This document shows positions 2,824-30,408 of a stretch of DNA of 32,000 nucleotides, one piece after another. Source of the stretch: Candidatus Saccharimonadota bacterium. Lineage in GTDB: Bacteria; Patescibacteriota; Gracilibacteria; Absconditabacterales; Absconditicoccaceae. A program made the position numbers and the translations under genes. Location: contig JAUIDC010000001.1 in NCBI GenBank assembly GCA_030429145.1, positions 720,001 to 752,000 of the forward strand. The letters are read 5' to 3'. The notes below the pieces were generated by a model, which saw nothing but the letters and a program-made list of their open reading frames with translations, was not told where the DNA came from and did no database searches. Positions within the stretch are counted from its first letter, which is position 1; each line of letters opens with the position of its first letter.

Positions 2824-3354
2824 ATGTTGAGAACAGCATTTACGCTCATAGAAATGTTGATAGTGATTGTCATTATTGGTATTTTAGCTGCAGCTCTTGT
2901 TCCAAGACTGCAATCGGTACAGTGAAGAGCGAGAGATAGTAAAAGAAAAGTTGATCTTAGAACTATCTACAATGCAAATGAGATCTATATCCTTGATAAT
3001 GGTTCGTATGCTCCGACCAATGGTCTTTTGCGCCATAGTTATGATACAGCTCCTTGGATACCATGATTGAGTGGCTTGCTAAACTCATTGCCGGTTGATC
3101 CGATTAATAGTCTTAATGGTGGCAATATTCATCCGTGGATGACAGGTTCATTTCACTATATTTATCATAGCTTGTATAGCGGAACGATCAATACATACGA
3201 TCTTGCAACACAGCTCGAGAATCCTCAGGATCCAGATAGAAATGAGATTCAGAACTGGAAACGTAATGCAGATCAACATTCATATGACAACTACTGAAGC
3301 CATCCGGCTGCTATGCAAATATACGACCTCTCTCCAAACGTAAAAAATCAATAA
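2824..3354 (+). CDS. type IV pilin-like protein, paralogue 2
   Basis: N-terminus is MLRTA|FTLIEMLIVIVIIGILAAALVP. Three in-frame TGA codons (2923, 3064, 3295); stop TAA at 3352-3354. The N-terminus and a C-terminal block (YDLATQLENPQDPDRNE) are shared with paralogue 1. Confidence 0.85.
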
Positions 3355-3396: not shown

Positions 3397-3445
3397 TAAA
3401 TTACTTGTATATGATAGCTATATGACTAACTTATTTATAGTCTAA

Positions 3446-3521
3446 TGGGGCGGTCGACGGGAATTGAACCCGCGGCCAGAGGATCCACAAACCTCTGCTC
3501 TACCACTGAGCTACGACCGCC
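3446..3521 (-). tRNA. tRNA-His (GUG), with encoded G-1 and CCA
   Basis: The reverse complement GGCGGTCGTAGCTCAGTGGTAGAGCAGAGGTTTGTGGATCCTCTGGCCGCGGGTTCAATTCCCGTCGACCGCCCCA folds as a cloverleaf. The anticodon loop is TTGTGGA. An extra 5' G pairs with C73, as expected for bacterial tRNA-His. Confidence 0.9.
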
Positions 3522-3606
3522 ATCTGTATCGTGCTGGCGTAGAAGAACTTATACAGATTTGTGGGTAAAAAGCAATAAGAACTCTTTATTTTTTCTCTTT
3601 CTGCTG

Positions 3607-4383
3607 ATGAGAATAAAATATCTACTGATAGGTATGATAGTGGCACTTAGTAGTTTCTCACAGGCTTTTGCTGTTTGAAATATTAGAGTTCTTCCTGGAA
3701 GATCATTGAACTATACCACTTATCAGTGAACTAAAATTTGGCACTATGAGGTTCCAAAGATTACCGTCATTAAACCAGCTGCTTTCAGCATTGTCTTCAA
3801 TGGAGTAGGTAATACCGCTTCTCGCCTCGTTCGTGATGGAGAGTATGCGGCTGTGCTCAATGCATCCTACTTTGGTCGACATCAAGACGGCACTTATTTT
3901 CCTGCAGGTGTCTGGTATGACAATGGATTCTTGATATCGCCACAAATGATACCGCAAAAAGATTTAAATTTACAGGTGTTGGCATACTACTATAGTGGTA
4001 GTATCGACTTTTATGAGAACAGCGAAATAGACATTAGTAGTCTGTCTCATACAACTCCAGGACTGTATTTTAATGCGTGACCGTGGCTTGTCAAAGATGG
4101 TACCATCAATCCTGATATTGTCAGATCTCGTTCTCATCGACAGTCAAAGGCATATAGGACGGCTATGCTTCGTACAGAGACAGGAGAACTCTATTTTGTG
4201 ATTGCTACTGAGAAGATAGATCTACCACAGCTTATAGTCTTTATCTACAAGAGTAGGTTCATACAAAAAGATGAAAAGTTTAATCTGGTAAACTTAGACG
4301 GAGGTTCTTCAACCTCCCTATGGTCACCAATAGTCAAATTTAATGCAACAAAAAGGTTACCGCTTTTTATAGGTGTTAAGTAA
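3607..4383 (+). CDS. secreted phosphodiester glycosidase family (DUF2233/NAGPA-like) protein
   Basis: Signal-like N-terminus MRIKYLLIGMIVALSSFSQAFA. Motifs NA-[TGA]-PWLVKDG, RTAMLRTETGELYFV and VNLDGGSSTSLW. Three in-frame TGA codons. The upstream part of track ORF 3445.. overlaps tRNA-His and is not coding. Confidence 0.7.
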
Positions 4384-12856: not shown

Positions 12857-12918
12857 TATGCTGCTGCCCTAGGGTGAACAGTCAATGAGAATGTTTATTT
12901 TGTATTATTGATCGTATT

Positions 12919-15900
12919 ATGAAAAGAACCATATTTCTCATACTAGCTATTCTTGTACTGGTTATCCTAGGATATCAGGTATTCGATGCATATTTACTCA
13001 ATCACCCATACTATTTCGGGTCAGCTACAGACGTTGGTATGCTAGGATCTGCTCAAAATCGAAAGGTGCTTATTCGAGCACTGTTAGCTGCATGTATCCC
13101 TGTGAGTTATCTGTTATTTATGAAAAAGAAAAGTTTGAAAGGATTGGCTATTAGCGCCTTTCTCGGTCTTTTTCTCTACTCGGTTGCAGAGGCTGTTATT
13201 AAACAGGATATCCTGTGACCAGGTTTCTTGTTGATGCTCTTTAAGTATGTGATCATTGTTGGTATTATCGTCTACTTCATCGTAGGATTGCTTGCGGTGG
13301 GAACTCGATTGAGAAAGAAAACATTTGGTAGTCACCACTGGAATATTGAACAGATTTTTTTGAATATAGGACTGGGACTTATTGTTTTCTGTCTCCTGAA
13401 CTATGCACTGATTATTCTCCATCTCTTCTATGGTATAGTCGTCGCAGTGATGTTTGTTGGGCTTGGCGTTGTTTGGTGGATGATGAGAAAAAGTATTACT
13501 GAGGCTGGCGAGTCTGTTGCTGGTATAGTGAATGAGATTAGTCGAACTAAGGCAGTGAGCTCTCCTACAGTTATGATGTTTGTGATCTTGGCTCTCTTCT
13601 CGTTTATGTATTTGTTCTATGGATTTGTCCTGTCTGATATCCCATATCCGACAGCTTGGGACGCCAATCATGCATATATGTACTTTCCAAAAATCTGGGC
13701 ACTCAATGCTGGATTCTACTGGGAGGAAAGCATCATGACTACTCCTACTATGTGGCTTGGATACATAGCATATTGGTTTAAGTTTATGTTCATCTTTGGC
13801 CAGAACACATGGATCAGTGCTGACAATCTTGCGGTGATTATGAACTTCCTTAGTGGTGTCTTTACACTCACATTTGGTTTGATCTTGGTGAAAGAAGTAT
13901 TGATTTTCATTCATGGGAAAGAGGAGCGTAAGACTCACTCTCTCTTCTTCGCTATTGGTTGGTTTCTGTTGATCCTTTGGCTAACAAGTGGTATGGGTGC
14001 GTTCTTGGTATTTGTCGATAATAAGACAGATCTTGGTGTGATGGCATTGACGATACTGGCATTGTACTCAGGCTTTTTCTTCCTCAATCAGCTGAGAGAT
14101 CATACGGAGGGAAAGAAACATTCACTTCACTATGTCATCTTATCGGGAGTGTTCTTTGCTGGAGCTATCTTAGCGAAACCGACAGCGACATTTGATGTTA
14201 TTAACTTTACCGTTATGATAGCTGCATTGTGGTTCGGTGCTATCCTCGCCTTTGGTGGATTCCTTTTGCTGCTCTGAGTGCTCGGAAAATCAGCTATCCT
14301 TACTGTACAAAAATTTCTCAATGATACGATGAGTAATCAGCTGCTTGCAGCATGAGGTATCGTCGGTGTTGCGGGCGTTGTCTATGCGTGGTTGAGAAAA
14401 AAATGGGCAAATCTACGTTATCTACTTGTGTGGGGTGTGGTTATTATTGCTACATTGGTTGTGGTTAAAGCGCCATACCTTGTGACAAAGCAACTCAAGG
14501 TTGACGATAACTTTGCACCAGTGAAGCTTATCAAGGATATCTTCCTTACGAGAAATGACACCGAGATCGTAGACAAGAAAAAAGATCGCATCCTTCTTGC
14601 AAGCACTTATGACTACCGCACTTTGCTTGCTGCCGATGCAGGAGCAGATCAAACAGATTCTTCTGAAATAACTCAGCCAAACGACGTGATTGCAGCATGT
14701 GAGGCACAAAATATTTCAAAGGAAGATCTTTACTCAAACCTCAAAACTCCTCCAGGAAGTGCATTAAACGAAGACGTAGGAAGATACATAGGATATGGTT
14801 GGAGAACGTTCGACCGTCCATGGCGAGGGTTCGCTTTCTCTGAAGGATGTCATGCATGGACAGCAGATGCAAAAATCCTTTGTCAAAATGAGGATGTTAT
14901 CCAAAACCCAACACTCTCAGGACTACAGTCTCTTTATGAAAAGCTTCCTGATAACACTAGAGGCAAAGAGATCTTAGGTAGTATCATGGATGAAAATACA
15001 ACAGCGATCCAGCTAGCAGCAGATATAAGAGAGCTAGAGGCTTACTACAAAGACAAGAGCTGGTATAAGGAAGATGGTAAAATTTCTTTGCCATTTACTG
15101 CTTTGGTACCATTTAATATTACATTCAACTGGTCTCTCCAAAACCTTACAAGTTACTATACTGATATAGGTGTTATCTGGCTTCTGTGTCTCTTCCTGAT
15201 CATCATAGGATTTATCTATAGCTTAGTGAAATGGAATAAGTCGTTGTTTGCTGTGACATTGGCTACGCTGACAGGGTGGACACTCTGGTGGGTAGCATGA
15301 GGTGCTATCCTCTGGTACTCACTTGGTGTCGTGATCTGGACAGTTATTGCAACTACGCTTGTACTCTATACACTGGGAAACGATACAAAGGGTGTGCAGA
15401 AAAATCTTTTCATGTTGCTTGCAGCCGTATTCGCCTTTATTGGTCTCTTCCAGCTTCTTCTCAATTTCATCAGAATTTCATCTCAAGGTGGCGGTGGTCC
15501 TTTTGTTTGGTATAGAGCGAATGTAGGAAATGTAACGACATTTGATAGTAATCTTGTACAGGAAACGAAGCAAAAGATTGGCTATAGTGATGAGGATGTC
15601 TTCCAGTTGCAGTTTGGTCATTATGATAAAACCATCTCTATTCTCGACGCAAGAGACGATAATGAAGGAGTTGTCATTGCTGGAACATACCTTCCATACT
15701 TCCTTACAAAACAAACAGGTATTTCTAACGACGGGTTTCTTGTAGACTTGTGGAAAAATCTCTCGGATAACGACCCATGTCGTACCTATCTGAGACTAAA
15801 AGACATGCAAGAGAAATATCTGGTGATCGATCCAAATATTGCCAGCGTTGTTATGGGAGATGCCAATAGATCACTTATGGACAGAATATTTGGTAAGCTG

Positions 15901-16443
15901 GATGAATCATGAGATAGTCTTATTGACTATGGTTCTATCACGATGATTGTACAGATGGTAGAGGAGGGCTATATGTCTCTTGCTGCTACTAACATCATCA
16001 GTGCAAAGTATGCATTTGAACTCAGCTCTGAGGAACTTCGTGCGGCATTCCCTGGCTTTTCAGAGGACGATGTTGTGCTGAGAGCAAAATTGACAACACT
16101 CAGATTTTGGCCAAAAGCCAACCAGATGTTCGCTCGTCTTCCTGCTATCTTTACGCAGAGGATGACCTCTATGGAAGCTATCGATGATATCGCTTCTATG
16201 ATGGGGAAGAATGTAGATACATCAAAGCTACAGTGACTAGCAAGATCATTCCTCAGTAAACAGAATATTACTCCTGATACCTTTGCAGAACTGACTCAGG
16301 ATGAGAAGAATGTACTTGTACAATACCTCAGCCTGTACAATTTGATGAAAACGAACAGCCAGCAATACCAGCAATATATGATGAATTTGCTACAACAAAG
16401 TGTGTTGTGAAGCAGTCAAGTTATGTTGTTTGAGCGTAAATAA
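12919..16443 (+). CDS. giant (1174 aa) polytopic membrane protein with large soluble domains; possible GT-C-fold glycosyltransferase
   Basis: Five track ORFs (12919, 13228, 14392, 15331, 15943) share one frame. All junctions were checked and contain only TGA (7 in total). TAA at 16441-16443. There are many TM helices, and a loop motif SDIPYPTAWDANHAYMYFPK. Confidence 0.7.
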
Positions 16444-17288: not shown

Positions 17289-18356
17289 ATGTTTCAATAT
17301 ATTTTACAATGACGATATGTGTTGACGATTGTGCTAGTTGCATCGATCGTATGATATATCGTATTCTATACTTTGGAACGAATATCCCATAAAAGAGCTC
17401 TCAAAAAAGAGCAGTCGAGAGATTCCCGTACTGAAGGAGAAGAGGATGATGAGGATACTTATCTGTATGAAGAATCTTCAAGCGTTTTGAGGATAGAGGA
17501 TGAAGATGGAAATGAGTTGATGGTCTTTGAAGAGGACTCATCAATTATTTCTGATGACGAAGATGATGATAGCAGTGACGATGACGAAGAGCTACTTTTC
17601 ATAGAAGAAGATGAGGACTCTGAAGATGATGGAGATGGTGAGGATGACGATGATGACGATGACAGTAGTGATGACGACGAGGTAATAGTTGCTCATCCCG
17701 AAGAAAATCTTGAAGCAGATGAAGACCAAGAAAAGCCAAAGAAGCATAAAGTAAAAAATATTGCAGAGTGAGTGAGTAGAGACGATATCTTACAGGATAA
17801 GCATGAAAAGAATCTCAAGAAGATTAAATATGAAGCTTTGTTGTTCAAACAGAGAAACGACATGGCTTGATTTGAAAAGAAATTAATAGAAGGACTGATC
17901 CTAGATCCAGACGATATAGACATATATAGACAGCTTGGTGATTTCTATTTTTCTGAAGGAAAGTATACGAAAGCTCTTAGTATGTTCAGAAAGATGCTCT
18001 CATTTGATGGAGATGATCATCATGCTCTCTGGCAGATTGGTGAAATATATATTGAGCAGTGACAGTTTGAAGACGCTCAGGTATTTATAGAAAAGGCTTT
18101 GAGCCTTTCTCCAGACAATCCGAAGTACTATATTAGTTTGATTGATATCTGTATAGCAAAAGAGGAGTTTCAGACCGCCTTAGGACATCTTGAAAAGATT
18201 GTTGCTTTGAGACCAAGAAACATCTCATACCTTATGGCTCTTGGCGAAATGTATGAAAAGCTTGGACGTAAAGACGATGCGAAAGAAACATATTCAAGAG
18301 TACTTGAGATTGACCCTCTGCACATAGATGTGAAACACATTTTAAAAAGATTCTAA
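17289..18356 (+). CDS. membrane-anchored polyacidic (D/E-rich) protein with C-terminal TPR repeats
   Basis: ATG 17289 is the first start after TAG 17268-17270. TGA codons at 17310 and 17352 hid this start from the ORF track. The N-terminal hydrophobic helix is YVLTIVLVASIV-G-YIVFY. A D/E tract follows, then TPR-like helices (ALSMFRKML..., AKETYSRVLEIDP). Confidence 0.65.
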
Positions 18357-26200: not shown

Positions 26201-27229
26201 ATGCAAACGATGGATAAGAAGAGCATTATAGCTGACTTAAAAAAAGTAGCATCTGCAGCAGAGCTAGACCAATGGTATGAGAAATATCTTGGTAAAAAGT
26301 GAGAAATCACCGTAGCCTATAAGAGCATGGGAGAGCTTTCTCCTGAAGAGAAAAAAGAGATGGGTCAGAAACTTGGAGAGATTAAGACTGAAGCGACAGC
26401 GCTCTACGAGGAAAAAAATACTGCTTTTCAACGTGACGCTATCAATGAGCAGCTTGCAAATGATCTCGTAGATATTTCTCTCGACTTACCACTTGTAAAG
26501 ACTGGCCATGCGCATCTTCTGCAAAAAGAAAGAAGACTTATCGAAGAGATTTGTCAGTCTATGGGTTTTATCATCGAGTACGGTAAGGATGTCGTAACAA
26601 AATACGAAAATTTCTATTCGGTAAATATCCCAGCGTCACATCCTGCTACCGAAATGCATGATACTTATTTTCTCTCACAACATGACGATCAAGGAGATAA
26701 TCTCGTGCTTCGCACGCATACATCTTCGATGCAAAATGAATTGATGAAGCGTTACGGAGTACCTTTAAAGACAGTTGTGCCTGGTAAAGTCTATAGACAT
26801 GAAAACACTGATGCATCACATGATACAGTGTTCTGGCAGTTAGAGGGACTGGTAATAGATAAAGATATCAGCATAGGAAACTTCAAAGAGATGATGATGT
26901 CGCTACTGTCAGCCATCTTCGGAAAGGATACAAAGATCAGGATGAGACCTGCCTACTTCCCATTTGTTGAACCAGGTTTTGAAATAGATGCAAGTTGTCC
27001 AATTTGTGAACAGAAGGGATGTTCTCTGTGTAAACAAACAGGATGGATAGAGATACTCGGTGCCGGTATGGTGCATCCAAATGTACTGAAGGAGGGTGGA
27101 GTCGACCCAAATGAGTATACAGGTTTTGCCTTTGGTATTGGTCTCAACAGAGTCGTTGCTATCAAGTATGACATCAAAGACATCAGGTACTTCACCAACG
27201 GTGATTTGAGATTTCTTCAGAGTTTTTAA
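26201..27229 (+). CDS. pheS: phenylalanine--tRNA ligase alpha subunit
   Basis: YLGKK-[TGA]-EIT...LSPEEKKEMGQ, and class II motifs LRTHTSSMQ, YRHENTDASHDTVFWQLEG and GFAFGIGLNRV. Confidence 0.9.
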
Positions 27230-27233
27230 TAGG

Positions 27234-27256
27234 CTGTCCCTAAGGGCAGTTTTTTT
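27234..27256 (+). terminator. rho-independent terminator after pheS
   Basis: CTG(T)CCC-taa-GGGCAG followed by T7. Confidence 0.65.
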
Positions 27257-27337
27257 GTAGATTTTTGCCGATTTCACTTGCTTTTTCTCTTTCTATATAT
27301 ATAGTATCAGCAATTTAGTTTATGTCAATAACTTCTG

Positions 27338-29503
27338 ATGAGAGCAGTGCTTAAGTTTATCATCCAAGTTGGCCTTATCTTCTTGCTTTTACGAATTCTT
27401 ATAAAGTACACAACACTTGATGACAAGGTTGTCACTTTTTTCCGTGCAAATAGCTCAATTTCACAGACGGGTAGCGTCGTACAACAGGATCGTGTCATGT
27501 GTACCACACCATGGGGTGTGCAGATCCCAGATGGTTCAAGTACCTATGCGTATGAGCAAACATCGCAAGGGGAGTGTAAAGAGGAAATTAGAACATGTAA
27601 CGGTGGAATACTCGATGGTTCATATCAGTCTCCTGCCTGTGCAAATGATACAAATCAGACGCCAACACAAAATGACGATACTTCCATCTCATTTGGTATG
27701 GCATGTACAACGCCACGAGGCGAAACAGTCAATGATGGTGCATATATCATAGCCTATGAAAGCACAAATTCATGTAGATTTGAAAAAAGATACTGTCAGG
27801 ATGGTGTTCTCAATGGTTCATTTTCAGCGCACACGTGCTACTCACCAAGAGAAGTTTCTCAACAACCAGCACAGCAATCTACAACAAATACGCAGGTAGT
27901 GACTACTACGCCAAATATCACTACTGTTAACTATGGGCTTATCGAAGATAAAGGAGCTTCTGACTATCAGTGACCATCAAGAACATCCACAAATGGCGTC
28001 ACTACAGTGATATATTCATGGGATGATAATAAAACAAATCCTGTAAGTAGATCAGCGAACGATAGCAAGTATATACAGCCTACTGTCTACAGAAATTTTG
28101 ACCTTACACAGCATGGTTGTATGACACCACGAGGTACATACCTTGATCATGGTGACAATGTGATCGCATATAGATCACCAACACCTGAGAGTAATGGAGC
28201 ATCATGTACCTATGAGAGAAGAACATGTTTCCAAGGTATGCTTGGAGGAAGTTATGCATACTCTTCATGTTCATTGGGAGATAGTAAAAATATTATCAAT
28301 AATAATGGACAAGATTACTATTATCCTCAAAAAACAACTTATTATCCAACCTATCCAAGATACTATTCGAACGCTAAATCATGTACAACATCACGAGGCG
28401 AAACAGTACAACACGGTGATTATGTACTTGCCTATAAGAGTTCATATACATCTCAGGGTAAATCATGCCAAGGGGAGTATAGATATTGTAACAATGGAAA
28501 ACTCGATGGTTCATACCAGAACAAGTCTTGTATCATGTCACAGGATAAGTACCGTTGTGTGTTGCCACGAGGTGGAACCGTACCACATGGTTCGTCTGTC
28601 GTTGCATATGCAAATAGCTCGTCACCATGTGCTAGTCAGCTAAGAACTTGTAATTATGGAAGACTTTCTGGTACGTATACCTATCAGTCATGTGAGCAAA
28701 AGAGAGACTACTATAGAAGCTGTCAGCTTCCGTGGGGTGGAACAATCCCTCATGGTGCTTCAGCTATAGCTTACAATAGCCCATATGGTCAATGTTTCAG
28801 TCAAAAGAGAACATGTTATGATGGCTCTCTAGCTGGAAGTTATCAGTTCTCATCATGTTCAAATAACTATAATCCTCACAGCCGATGTGCTTTTGGCAAC
28901 TGTCATGGAGGATACAACAATAATCACAATAACTACCATAGCTGCCAACTTCCACGAGGTGGAAGTATCGCGCATGGCGCGTCTGTCACAGCCTACAATA
29001 GCCCAAGTGGTTCTTGTTACAGCCAAACGAGAACATGTTACAATGGCTACCTCAATGGTTCTTACCAGTACGGCTACTGTAATAAGTATCCAACCTGTAC
29101 AGGAAATAACTGTGGAAACAATAACTATAGGAGTTGTCAGCTTCCATGGGGAGGTAGTATAGCACATGGGGCAAAAGTAGAGGCTTATCAAAGTACTTCT
29201 GCACCTTGTTACAAGCAAACGAGAACCTGTAACAATGGCTATCTCGATGGCAACTACCAATATAGCTATTGTAATGCAACTAATCCTGGAGGAGGCCAAG
29301 ACTACTACGGTAATTGGATAGATGTCGGTGTAAAACAAGGTGACATGGATGGCTATGATACTTGTAACAACAATAGTGCATCGTCATATCTCTGTGGAAG
29401 CGAAGGAACAAACAGCTGTACCGACTATAGTAGAGTATCATGTACATCATTCTCTCCATTGGTATGTACCTACTGGAAGAGAGATGTGAAGTGTGTGAAA
29501 TAA
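27338..29503 (+). CDS. secreted/anchored cysteine-rich protein with eight tandem 4-Cys modules (721 aa)
   Basis: Track ORFs 27338.. and 28007.. share a frame and are joined by a single TGA (27971). Hydrophobic N-terminus FIIQVGLIFLLLRILI. Repeated module: C-x2-P-[WR]-G-x-x-[IV]-x-[HD]-G-x5-AY-x6-11-C-x5-[RY]-x-C-x-[NDQY]-G-x-L-x-G-[ST]-[YF]-x4-C. Confidence 0.8.
27500..29272 (+). repeat. eight protein-level tandem repeats (45-51 aa each) inside the Cys-rich CDS
   Basis: Module spans: 27500-27640, 27704-27838, 28118-28270, 28382-28531, 28556-28693, 28721-28858, 28943-29080, 29135-29272. The last four are closest to each other (CQLPWGGxIxHGA...). The DNA copies have diverged. Confidence 0.8.
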
Positions 29504-29530: not shown

Positions 29531-29557
29531 AAAAACTCCCATAAAGGGAGTTTTTTT
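29531..29557. terminator. bidirectional terminator between the Cys-rich gene and the convergent murD fragment
   Basis: AAAAA-CTCCC-ataaa-GGGAG-TTTTTTT. Confidence 0.7.
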
Positions 29558-29568
29558 GATAGATAGTT

Positions 29569-30288
29569 CTAATAAACAGAGAGATTTTTGACGCATTGAT
29601 TGAACGTGTCTCAGCGTTTCTTGTAGTTTTTAAACATATCAAAGCTTGGGGCGGCGGGAGAGAGGACTACAGCATCGTCTTTCTCGTTAGCAGCTTCACG
29701 AGCTTGGTTTACTGCCTCTTGCATACTAGATGCAGTAGATATACTTCGTGTTTGGTCAAACGTGTGAAGAAGATTTTTCCAGTAGTGTGGATCACTACTC
29801 AGACACACAATATGTTTTACTTTTGTATTGATCTCATCTATGACTGCCTCCGGTGGTTCTTTGATGTTCTGAGTTTTCCCTCAGATAATGAGGACTGTTG
29901 GCTGTTTTATATGAGCTAATGCGTATCGCAGAGTATTCCAGTTTGATGAGATGCTATCGTTGAAGTAGTCTATGCCTGAGAATCTACCAATATGCTGCAT
30001 TTTATAGGGGGTTTCTTCAAGTGTTGTGAGCGCTTCTATGAGTTGTGCTTTCCTGATGAGACCTCTATTTCCGTTGAGTTTCCCAACCAATCATGCTTTG
30101 ATATGATTGTTGAAGTCTATCTCTTTGAGACGATTGAAATCAGCTATCGTTTCTGCCTCATGACCATGGTGACGTTGAAAAGCGTGTTCATCGATTCACT
30201 TTGCTTTAAGCATTCCTCTTTTCTCATAGGTAAAAACGCTAATGATTATATAAAATCATTGCTTCATGTCAATCTTTCAAAAGAACAT
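29569..30288 (-). pseudogene. murD: murD (UDP-N-acetylmuramoylalanine--D-glutamate ligase), C-terminal ~240 aa only; N-terminal Rossmann domain and an intact P-loop are missing
   Basis: Motifs LVGKLNGNRG, GIDYFNDSISSNWNTL, VLII-[TGA]-GK and VVLSPAAPSFDMFKNYKKR-[TGA]-DRF. The frame is closed by TAA at 30310-30312 upstream. No ORF encoding ITGTNGKST lies above it. Confidence 0.55.
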
Positions 30289-30408
30289 GAAAAACACCAG
30301 TTGATACCCTTAAGTTATCAAGAAAGTGGGCATTTTGGCACTTATTACATATTATATATATGAAGTCAACCATCTATGTAGTAAATAAGTATTTATGTAT
30401 GATCTGTT

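Follow-up and report, generated by a model that had tools for sequence, protein, structure and literature searches.

A 32,000-nucleotide stretch of a Gracilibacteria genome (GenBank assembly GCA_030429145.1, contig JAUIDC010000001.1, positions 720,001 to 752,000), hereafter the window, carries on its plus strand a gene at 27338..29503 whose product joins eight small four-cysteine modules to a hydrophobic N-terminus and a Cys-rich tail. Read with genetic code 25, in which TGA specifies Gly, the gene consists of 721 codons followed by a TAA stop, and translation runs through a single in-frame TGA (27971..27973, amino acid (aa) 212), in agreement with an original prediction made from the DNA sequence alone. 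That prediction also placed the gene where pheT would normally follow pheS. The upstream gene at 26201–27229 is indeed pheS (Pfam tRNA-synt_2d, E=8.6e-81), and a Pfam scan that did not cover every window open reading frame (ORF) turned up no gene resembling pheT.

The modules, M1 to M8, are 45–51 aa long and contain four Cys each, with the first Cys at aa 55, 123, 261, 349, 407, 462, 536 and 600 and Cys-to-Cys offsets of 23–29, 7 and 14. A core pattern, C-x22-28-C-x4-R-x-C-x2-G-x-L-x-G-x-[YF]-x4-C, fits all eight but not one of 5000 shuffled versions of the protein, which bears out the predicted module count. The motif originally written for them, taken literally, fits no module, having two spacers that are one residue too long; the right spacers are HG-x4-AY and C-x4-R, and after this mending only M6 and M7 satisfy the strict residue classes. 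The 42 Cys of the protein are divided among the modules (32), C-x4-C loops in the linkers (4) and the tail (6), with none upstream of aa 55.

The protein opens with a segment of aa 1–35 (27338..27442) made up of a positively charged start, MRAVLK, a hydrophobic stretch at aa 4–22 and a juxtamembrane KYTTLDDK. M1 (27500..27640, aa 55–101), which is missing from some orthologues (P0005–P0007; related proteins and loci are cited by P and L numbers), is followed by M2 (27704..27838, aa 123–167), which keeps its position, is present in all ten aligned homologues and accounts for many invariant columns in alignment A2. A Cys-free spacer (27839..28117, aa 168–260) comes next, variable in its first part and conserved in its second, where VNYG, DYxGPSRTS, NPxx and Y..DLTQ.GC recur. 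M3 (28118..28270, aa 261–311; 83% identity to its counterpart in P0001) and M4 (28382..28531, aa 349–398), which is preceded by a Tyr/Pro-rich linker at aa 312–348, also keep their positions. The remaining modules form a variable-number array, M5–M8 (28556..29272; aa 407–452, 462–507, 536–581 and 600–645), and the protein ends in a conserved tail (29273..29500, aa 646–721) that has the predicted 76 residues but six Cys rather than seven. Both linker sequences quoted in the original prediction are present, YYYPQKTTYYPTYPRYY from aa 327 and NNNHNNYH from aa 527. Two linkers of the array, aa 508–535 (28859–28942) and 582–599 (29081–29134), hold the C-x4-C mini-loops CAFGNC (C517/C522) and CTGNNC (C587/C592), and array linkers of orthologues repeatedly bear similar loops (CYGRQC, CYWRNC, CHGDSC...CHDGTC); the original prediction mentions no such loops.

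Several observations support the gene model. First, long uninterrupted ORFs occur across the whole window only with TGA as a sense codon, and translation with table 11 breaks the target region into two ORFs of 211 and 498 aa. Second, every TGA was marked in orthologous genes of related genomes, which were then aligned; of 365 residues opposite TGA, 177 are Gly (background 7.4%) and none is Trp. Third, the TGA at aa 212 pairs with Gly in P0001 (EYQGPSRTS) and P0005 (YEGPSRTS), and the orthologues, at 36–67% identity, begin MRAVLKF... and finish ...CVK as the target does. Since TGA sites oppose Gly and never Trp, the source organism is, by these alignments, a code-25 Patescibacterium of Gracilibacteria type in which TGA encodes Gly. 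The related loci carry the labels Ca. Absconditabacterales, Ca. Peribacteria or Patescibacteria; no tRNA-Gly(UCA) lies within the window.

Public copies of several orthologues show W at Gly positions conserved in the family (for example PRWW for PRGG, or NWxL), which indicates translation with code 4 in place of code 25. Such copies (P0001, P0005, P0010–P0013, P0015, P0023 and P0025) slightly corrupt the profiles built from them. Use of TGA is itself uneven: it accounts for 1 of 69 Gly codons (1.4%) in the target versus 108 of 604 (18%) in the other window genes (Fisher p=8.7e-5). In L002, L005 and L006 the TGA share of the orthologue equals that of its neighbours (33–42%), in L007 it is somewhat lower (61% vs 77% in the one neighbour), and L003 and L008 display only a weak trend.

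The module, its libraries and its relatives

Scans of the target protein against Pfam-A and NCBIfam gave no match at E<=10, a PHROGs scan gave none, and the module profile matched no PDB sequence at E<=10. In relatives of other lineages that contain several modules, Pfam and NCBIfam cover only the remaining domains and PHROGs returned nothing significant, and a tblastn search of phage records with aa 536–721, the last two modules and the tail, found no match. RefSeq names module-bearing proteins 'hypothetical protein'. No description of the module was found in the literature; the hypervariable Gracilibacteria surface protein of bioRxiv 10.1101/595074 is a different, PTD-repeat protein. As far as these libraries reach, the module is a conserved, uncatalogued four-cysteine unit of no named family. 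The original prediction had likewise been unable to assign one, and no match to a characterised family has overturned it.

Conservation is strong across homologues, including that of the Cys. In an alignment of 98 module instances (M8 numbering), C3, C27, R32, C34 and C48 are invariant and G14, G37, L39 and G41 nearly so, and the family consensus in the stretch between the third and fourth Cys is G-S-Y-x-Y. Each module is probably locked by two disulfides. An AlphaFold2 model of M8 built from the same alignment has a predicted local distance difference test (pLDDT) score of 94.7 and consists of four main strands without a helix. This confident beta fold has no significant structural relative, as a Foldseek search of the model against PDB and BFVD returned nothing at E<=0.001.

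A loose likeness to Sushi/CCP modules, which pair Cys1 with Cys3 and Cys2 with Cys4, had been part of the original prediction, and the module could in principle be a true, highly diverged prokaryotic member of that superfamily. Like Sushi/CCP modules (PF00084; ~50–60 aa), it is a small all-beta extracellular unit with four Cys and C-x2-P after the first Cys, and it occurs in tandem arrays. The top Foldseek matches of M8 in PDB are to domain V of beta2-glycoprotein I (E=0.88–3, query-normalised TM-score 0.50–0.55), and HpARI, which is built of CCP-like modules, is also listed (E=5.7). Domain V is an aberrant Sushi/CCP module. In hhalign comparisons, for which a beta2-glycoprotein I sequence identical to PDB 6v06_A was used, HG-x-x-V...C...C-x-[DN]-G of the module is set on the corresponding stretch of domain V. 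However, the probability of that alignment is 10.8%, and it falls to 0.1% against the four canonical CCPs of the same protein. The Pfam Sushi model is silent at E<=10, and the hallmark Trp between the third and fourth Cys is missing from all eight modules. The modules are also shorter, at 45–51 aa, and differ in Cys spacing (23–29/7/14), the offset of 7 between the second and third Cys being far shorter than in the four canonical CCPs, and in an invariant Arg two residues before the third Cys. Membership is rejected on sequence because the profile comparison with CCPs failed; the predicted fold leaves a weak lead, and descent from the Sushi superfamily is very improbable.

The thrombospondin type 1 repeat (TSP1; PF00090 / PF19030) was a second candidate. 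It too is a disulfide-rich extracellular repeat of ~50 aa with conserved Trp, Arg and Cys, and in a six-Cys variant of the module the C-G-x2-C...R-x-C stretch resembles TSP1 by eye. TSP1 repeats form a long three-strand ribbon, whereas the module is predicted as a compact multi-strand beta unit. Pfam TSP1 models miss the module both in the target and in P0026, where a TSP1_ADAMTS match at aa 432–486 adjoins a module at aa 487–539 without overlap, and this membership was rejected as well.

The module is widespread. A profile search of 1.84 billion representative proteins recovered it in 3,728 clusters at E<=0.001, of which 954 reach E<=1e-30 (clusters counted at 50% identity), with up to 43 matched stretches in single proteins. 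Among the top 143 representatives, which all family statistics cover, the median is seven modules per protein, and 962 of 1063 full modules contain exactly four Cys. A hydrophobic N-terminal segment is present in 112 of the 137 representatives that start with Met, and 49 of the 143 have an FQNC lipobox-like motif. Domains found alongside the module (PG_binding_1, SH3_3, LamG, fn3, PKD, BNR, collagen and TSP1_ADAMTS) are typical of extracellular and wall proteins. These partners, together with the signal- or lipoprotein-like N-termini, place the module outside the cytoplasm.

The best match is a protein of 15 modules from the epibiotic predator Pseudobdellovibrio exovorus (WP_015469866.1, P0027; profile E=5.5e-276), and the module also occurs in a Woesearchaeota protein. 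P0027-type lipoproteins, annotated 'hypothetical protein', share with the target the module family, the four-Cys spacing and the invariant R-x-C-x-[ND]-G-x-L-x-G. They differ in having modules of a C-x-F-N-G subtype and an FQNC lipoprotein signal, in place of C-x2-P-[WR]-G modules and a predicted signal-anchor, and they lack the conserved tail and the linkage to pheS. A further locus, L009, lies on plasmid pRS11DPr1 of Methylomagnum ishizawai (NZ_AP019784.1 40857–51222) and comprises three consecutive 'hypothetical protein' genes with the module in the middle one. It is flanked on one side by a putative porin gene and on the other by a substrate-binding-domain gene, beyond which is a gene for a ShlB/FhaC two-partner-secretion transporter.

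Orthologues, array copy number and gene neighbourhood

Resemblance to the target over the whole protein is limited to 26 proteins, and orthologous loci number seven among 185,579 species genomes; the pheS-linked protein is restricted to a code-25 Gracilibacteria-type clade. The orthologues share a common order: an N-terminal helix, K[YF]TT[LI]DD, M1 where present, M2, the Cys-free spacer, M3, M4, a variable array, a last module of 'AKVEAYQ...PCYK' type and the Cys-rich tail. M1 to M4 each best match their own counterparts in other genomes. The total number of modules differs between orthologues, from 5 to 12, and the variation lies solely in the C-terminal array, where the identity of adjacent modules is as high as 94% in L002 and 88% in L007. 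Modules present in most orthologues are conserved at 51–63%, compared with 19–33% for the linkers between M1 and M4, and linkers are the least conserved parts of the protein.

Within the target, M6–M8 are 57–73% identical in protein sequence versus 33–46% for M1–M4, which confirms that C-terminal modules are the more alike, as originally described. The recent C-terminal expansion read from this pattern stands with respect to its site, and the same site varies across orthologues. It does not stand with respect to its age in the target genome: repeats share only 60–78% DNA identity, so the duplications there are old, and a recent expansion is rejected.

The position of the target behind pheS is conserved: five of the seven orthologous loci retain a CBS-domain gene, pheS and the target in that order, and in four (L002, L004, L006 and L007) ftsW comes after the target. 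A terminator-like hairpin with a T-run lies immediately 3' of the pheS stop (27231..27252, plus strand), which implies that the target would have its own promoter in the AT-rich interval 27260–27337. A second hairpin, ACTCCC-ATAAA-GGGAGT (29531..29557), lies 28 nt past the target stop between an A-run and a T-run; it was read directly from the sequence, is absent from the consensus terminator scan list and is probably a bidirectional terminator. With hairpins after both pheS and the target, the gene looks monocistronic. The hairpins, the seven orthologous loci and the retained gene order all speak for a genuine gene that has been maintained.

This neighbourhood raises the possibility that the protein serves envelope structure or division, with an ectodomain that attaches, as scaffold or spacer, to the wall or S-layer of its own cell instead of to a foreign one. 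The adjoining ftsW in four loci would suit such a role, as would a Mur-ligase-like ORF adjoining the target both in the window and in L008, the occurrence of the module with PG_binding_1 and SH3_3 in other proteins, and the many invariant columns of A2 in the membrane-proximal M2 and M3. However, shared gene order may be no more than common descent in a single clade. The window itself has ftsW 3.4 kb upstream of the target, beyond five unrelated genes, and the terminator-like hairpins at either end of the target suggest that it is monocistronic. A variable stalk with a conserved distal tip is also more typical of outward-facing proteins. We therefore consider a structural envelope role unlikely, if the foremost of the alternatives.

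The Mur-ligase-like ORF itself (29569–30297, minus strand) has a borderline Mur_ligase_C match (28.5 bits vs a cutoff of 28.4), and the N-terminal and central domains of a ligase are not recognisable in it. A counterpart with 37% identity occupies the same place in L008, and the ORF could be a remnant or else encode a short, divergent protein.

Elsewhere in the window, two tandem type IV pilin-like genes (2223–2780 and 2824–3354, plus strand) share the methylation motif FTLIEMLIVIVIIGILAA at the N-terminus (Pfam N_methyl). A tRNA-His gene (3446–3520, minus strand) lies beneath the 5' end of a long plus-strand ORF (3445–4383), whose true start is probably near 3607 (MRIKYLL...) and whose product is a signal-bearing protein with a NAGPA phosphodiester glycosidase domain. 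A gene at 12874–16443 (plus strand) encodes a predicted polytopic membrane protein of 1189 aa. It lies directly 3' of a 729-aa ORF with one N-terminal and several C-terminal hydrophobic segments that appears SecD/SecF-like by eye. The product of 17289–18356 (plus strand) has a very long Asp/Glu-rich run at aa ~50–150 and a C-terminal half that is TPR-like by eye.

Membrane anchoring and a proposed surface stalk

The predicted hydrophobic N-terminus is confirmed as a single segment, aa 4–22, with a 19-residue Kyte-Doolittle mean of 2.47; every other span of that length in the protein is at 1.6 or below. Neither LPXTG nor a C-terminal anchor is present in the target. The original prediction called the protein secreted, and a segment for export or anchoring does exist; however, the protein is more likely membrane-anchored than released, with aa 4–22 acting as a putative uncleaved signal-anchor. 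Three features favour anchoring: the length of the segment, the absence of a small-x-small cleavage motif behind it, and conservation of the juxtamembrane K[YF]TT[LI]DD.

Were the segment instead to serve as a cleaved Sec signal peptide, the product would be fully secreted, for example as a soluble glycan-binding lectin or as an array of protease-inhibitor-like modules. Tandem small disulfide-rich domains also build some inhibitors, for example Kazal arrays, whose construction is comparable, and the conserved aromatic, His and Asn positions of the module would suit sugar binding. Set against this are a hydrophobic core of ~16–19 residues without a helix breaker, the conserved KYTTLDD after it, which offers no A-x-A-like site, and the lack of any Pfam inhibitor or lectin family at E<=10. 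A released protein is accordingly quite improbable.

At the other end of the protein, four Cys of the tail (C676, C686, C694 and C719) are invariant in alignment A3, and C702 and C710 vary as a pair: one subgroup has a vicinal CC in their stead, and P0015 has neither. Such paired change, like the four Cys of most family modules, is a signature of disulfides. An AlphaFold2 model of the tail is all-beta, with pLDDT averages of 68–88, most of them 79–88, over 10-residue blocks of aa 654–721.

The explanation we favour, with somewhat better than even confidence, is that the protein forms a surface stalk, type-II anchored and stabilised by disulfides, which varies in length, carries a conserved tip and would most likely function in binding. 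The N-terminal helix would hold the protein in the cytoplasmic membrane with its N-terminus inside and the remainder outside. The exterior part would be a string of eight small all-beta modules, separated by variable Tyr/Asn/Thr-rich linkers and ended by a conserved disulfide-rich beta 'tip' domain. Its four membrane-proximal modules would be position-specific and conserved in orthologues, and the copy number of the distal array would shift between lineages through duplication and loss. We propose that array copy number sets the length of the stalk and the distance of the tip from the cell. What the analysis shows is the gene model with its code, the conserved module and its lack of a library entry, the confident beta fold of one module, the lone hydrophobic segment, the variation in copy number and the constant place behind pheS; we infer the membrane topology, the uncleaved signal, the disulfides and their pairing, surface exposure and binding, with any ligand.

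Variable-length bacterial surface proteins include periscope-type stalks such as SasG or Rib-domain proteins. Similar to these, the target combines a predicted cell anchor, a tandem array that varies between lineages and can contain near-identical neighbours (up to 94%), and a conserved distal domain. Unlike them, it uses an unrelated disulfide-rich repeat and an N-terminal membrane helix instead of a C-terminal LPXTG; only the distal half of its array varies, and its repeats have already diverged by 27–51% in protein sequence.

The most likely job of such a stalk is binding of a partner cell, or of a surface or envelope polymer, and a role as an adhesin or in host contact, as first suggested, is plausible. 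Several points weigh against this proposal. The module occurs on plasmid genes of Methylomagnum ishizawai and Allochromatium tepidum, and its family is not limited to host-dependent or predatory organisms, so the module alone does not imply host contact. The conserved neighbours (pheS, ftsW and the Mur-ligase-like ORF) suit an envelope or division role as well as adhesion. The tail model, moreover, is of moderate confidence and without a structural relative, a Foldseek search against PDB having found no match, and in an AlphaFold2 run on aa 534–721 with a shallow alignment of 12 sequences the modules were poorly modelled (pLDDT 41–62).

A bolder extension of the proposed stalk, which we hold to be highly doubtful, would make the module a prokaryotic counterpart of the Sushi/CCP fold, ancestral or convergent, carried on variable-length stalks by which cell-attached predators and symbionts (code-25 Gracilibacteria, Bdellovibrio-like bacteria and a Woesearchaeota archaeon) recognise the surfaces of partner cells. 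If that were true, the pheS-linked protein would be a lineage-defining component of a host-contact organelle of the Gracilibacteria clade.

Catalogues of small disulfide-rich extracellular repeats are good for animals and poor for bacteria. The present module, which has a confident predicted fold, occurs in ~3,700 clusters and is missing from Pfam, NCBIfam, PHROGs and PDB, therefore lends itself both to definition as a new domain family and to structure determination. The domain family is uncatalogued, yet it belongs to a familiar class, that of small disulfide-rich extracellular repeats, and to a familiar architecture, that of a variable-length surface stalk; by itself the finding settles no long-standing question. 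For the uncultured code-25 Patescibacteria, it marks a conserved, clade-specific and predicted surface protein that is variable in length, and thus a natural first candidate for how these tiny cells touch their surroundings or their partners.

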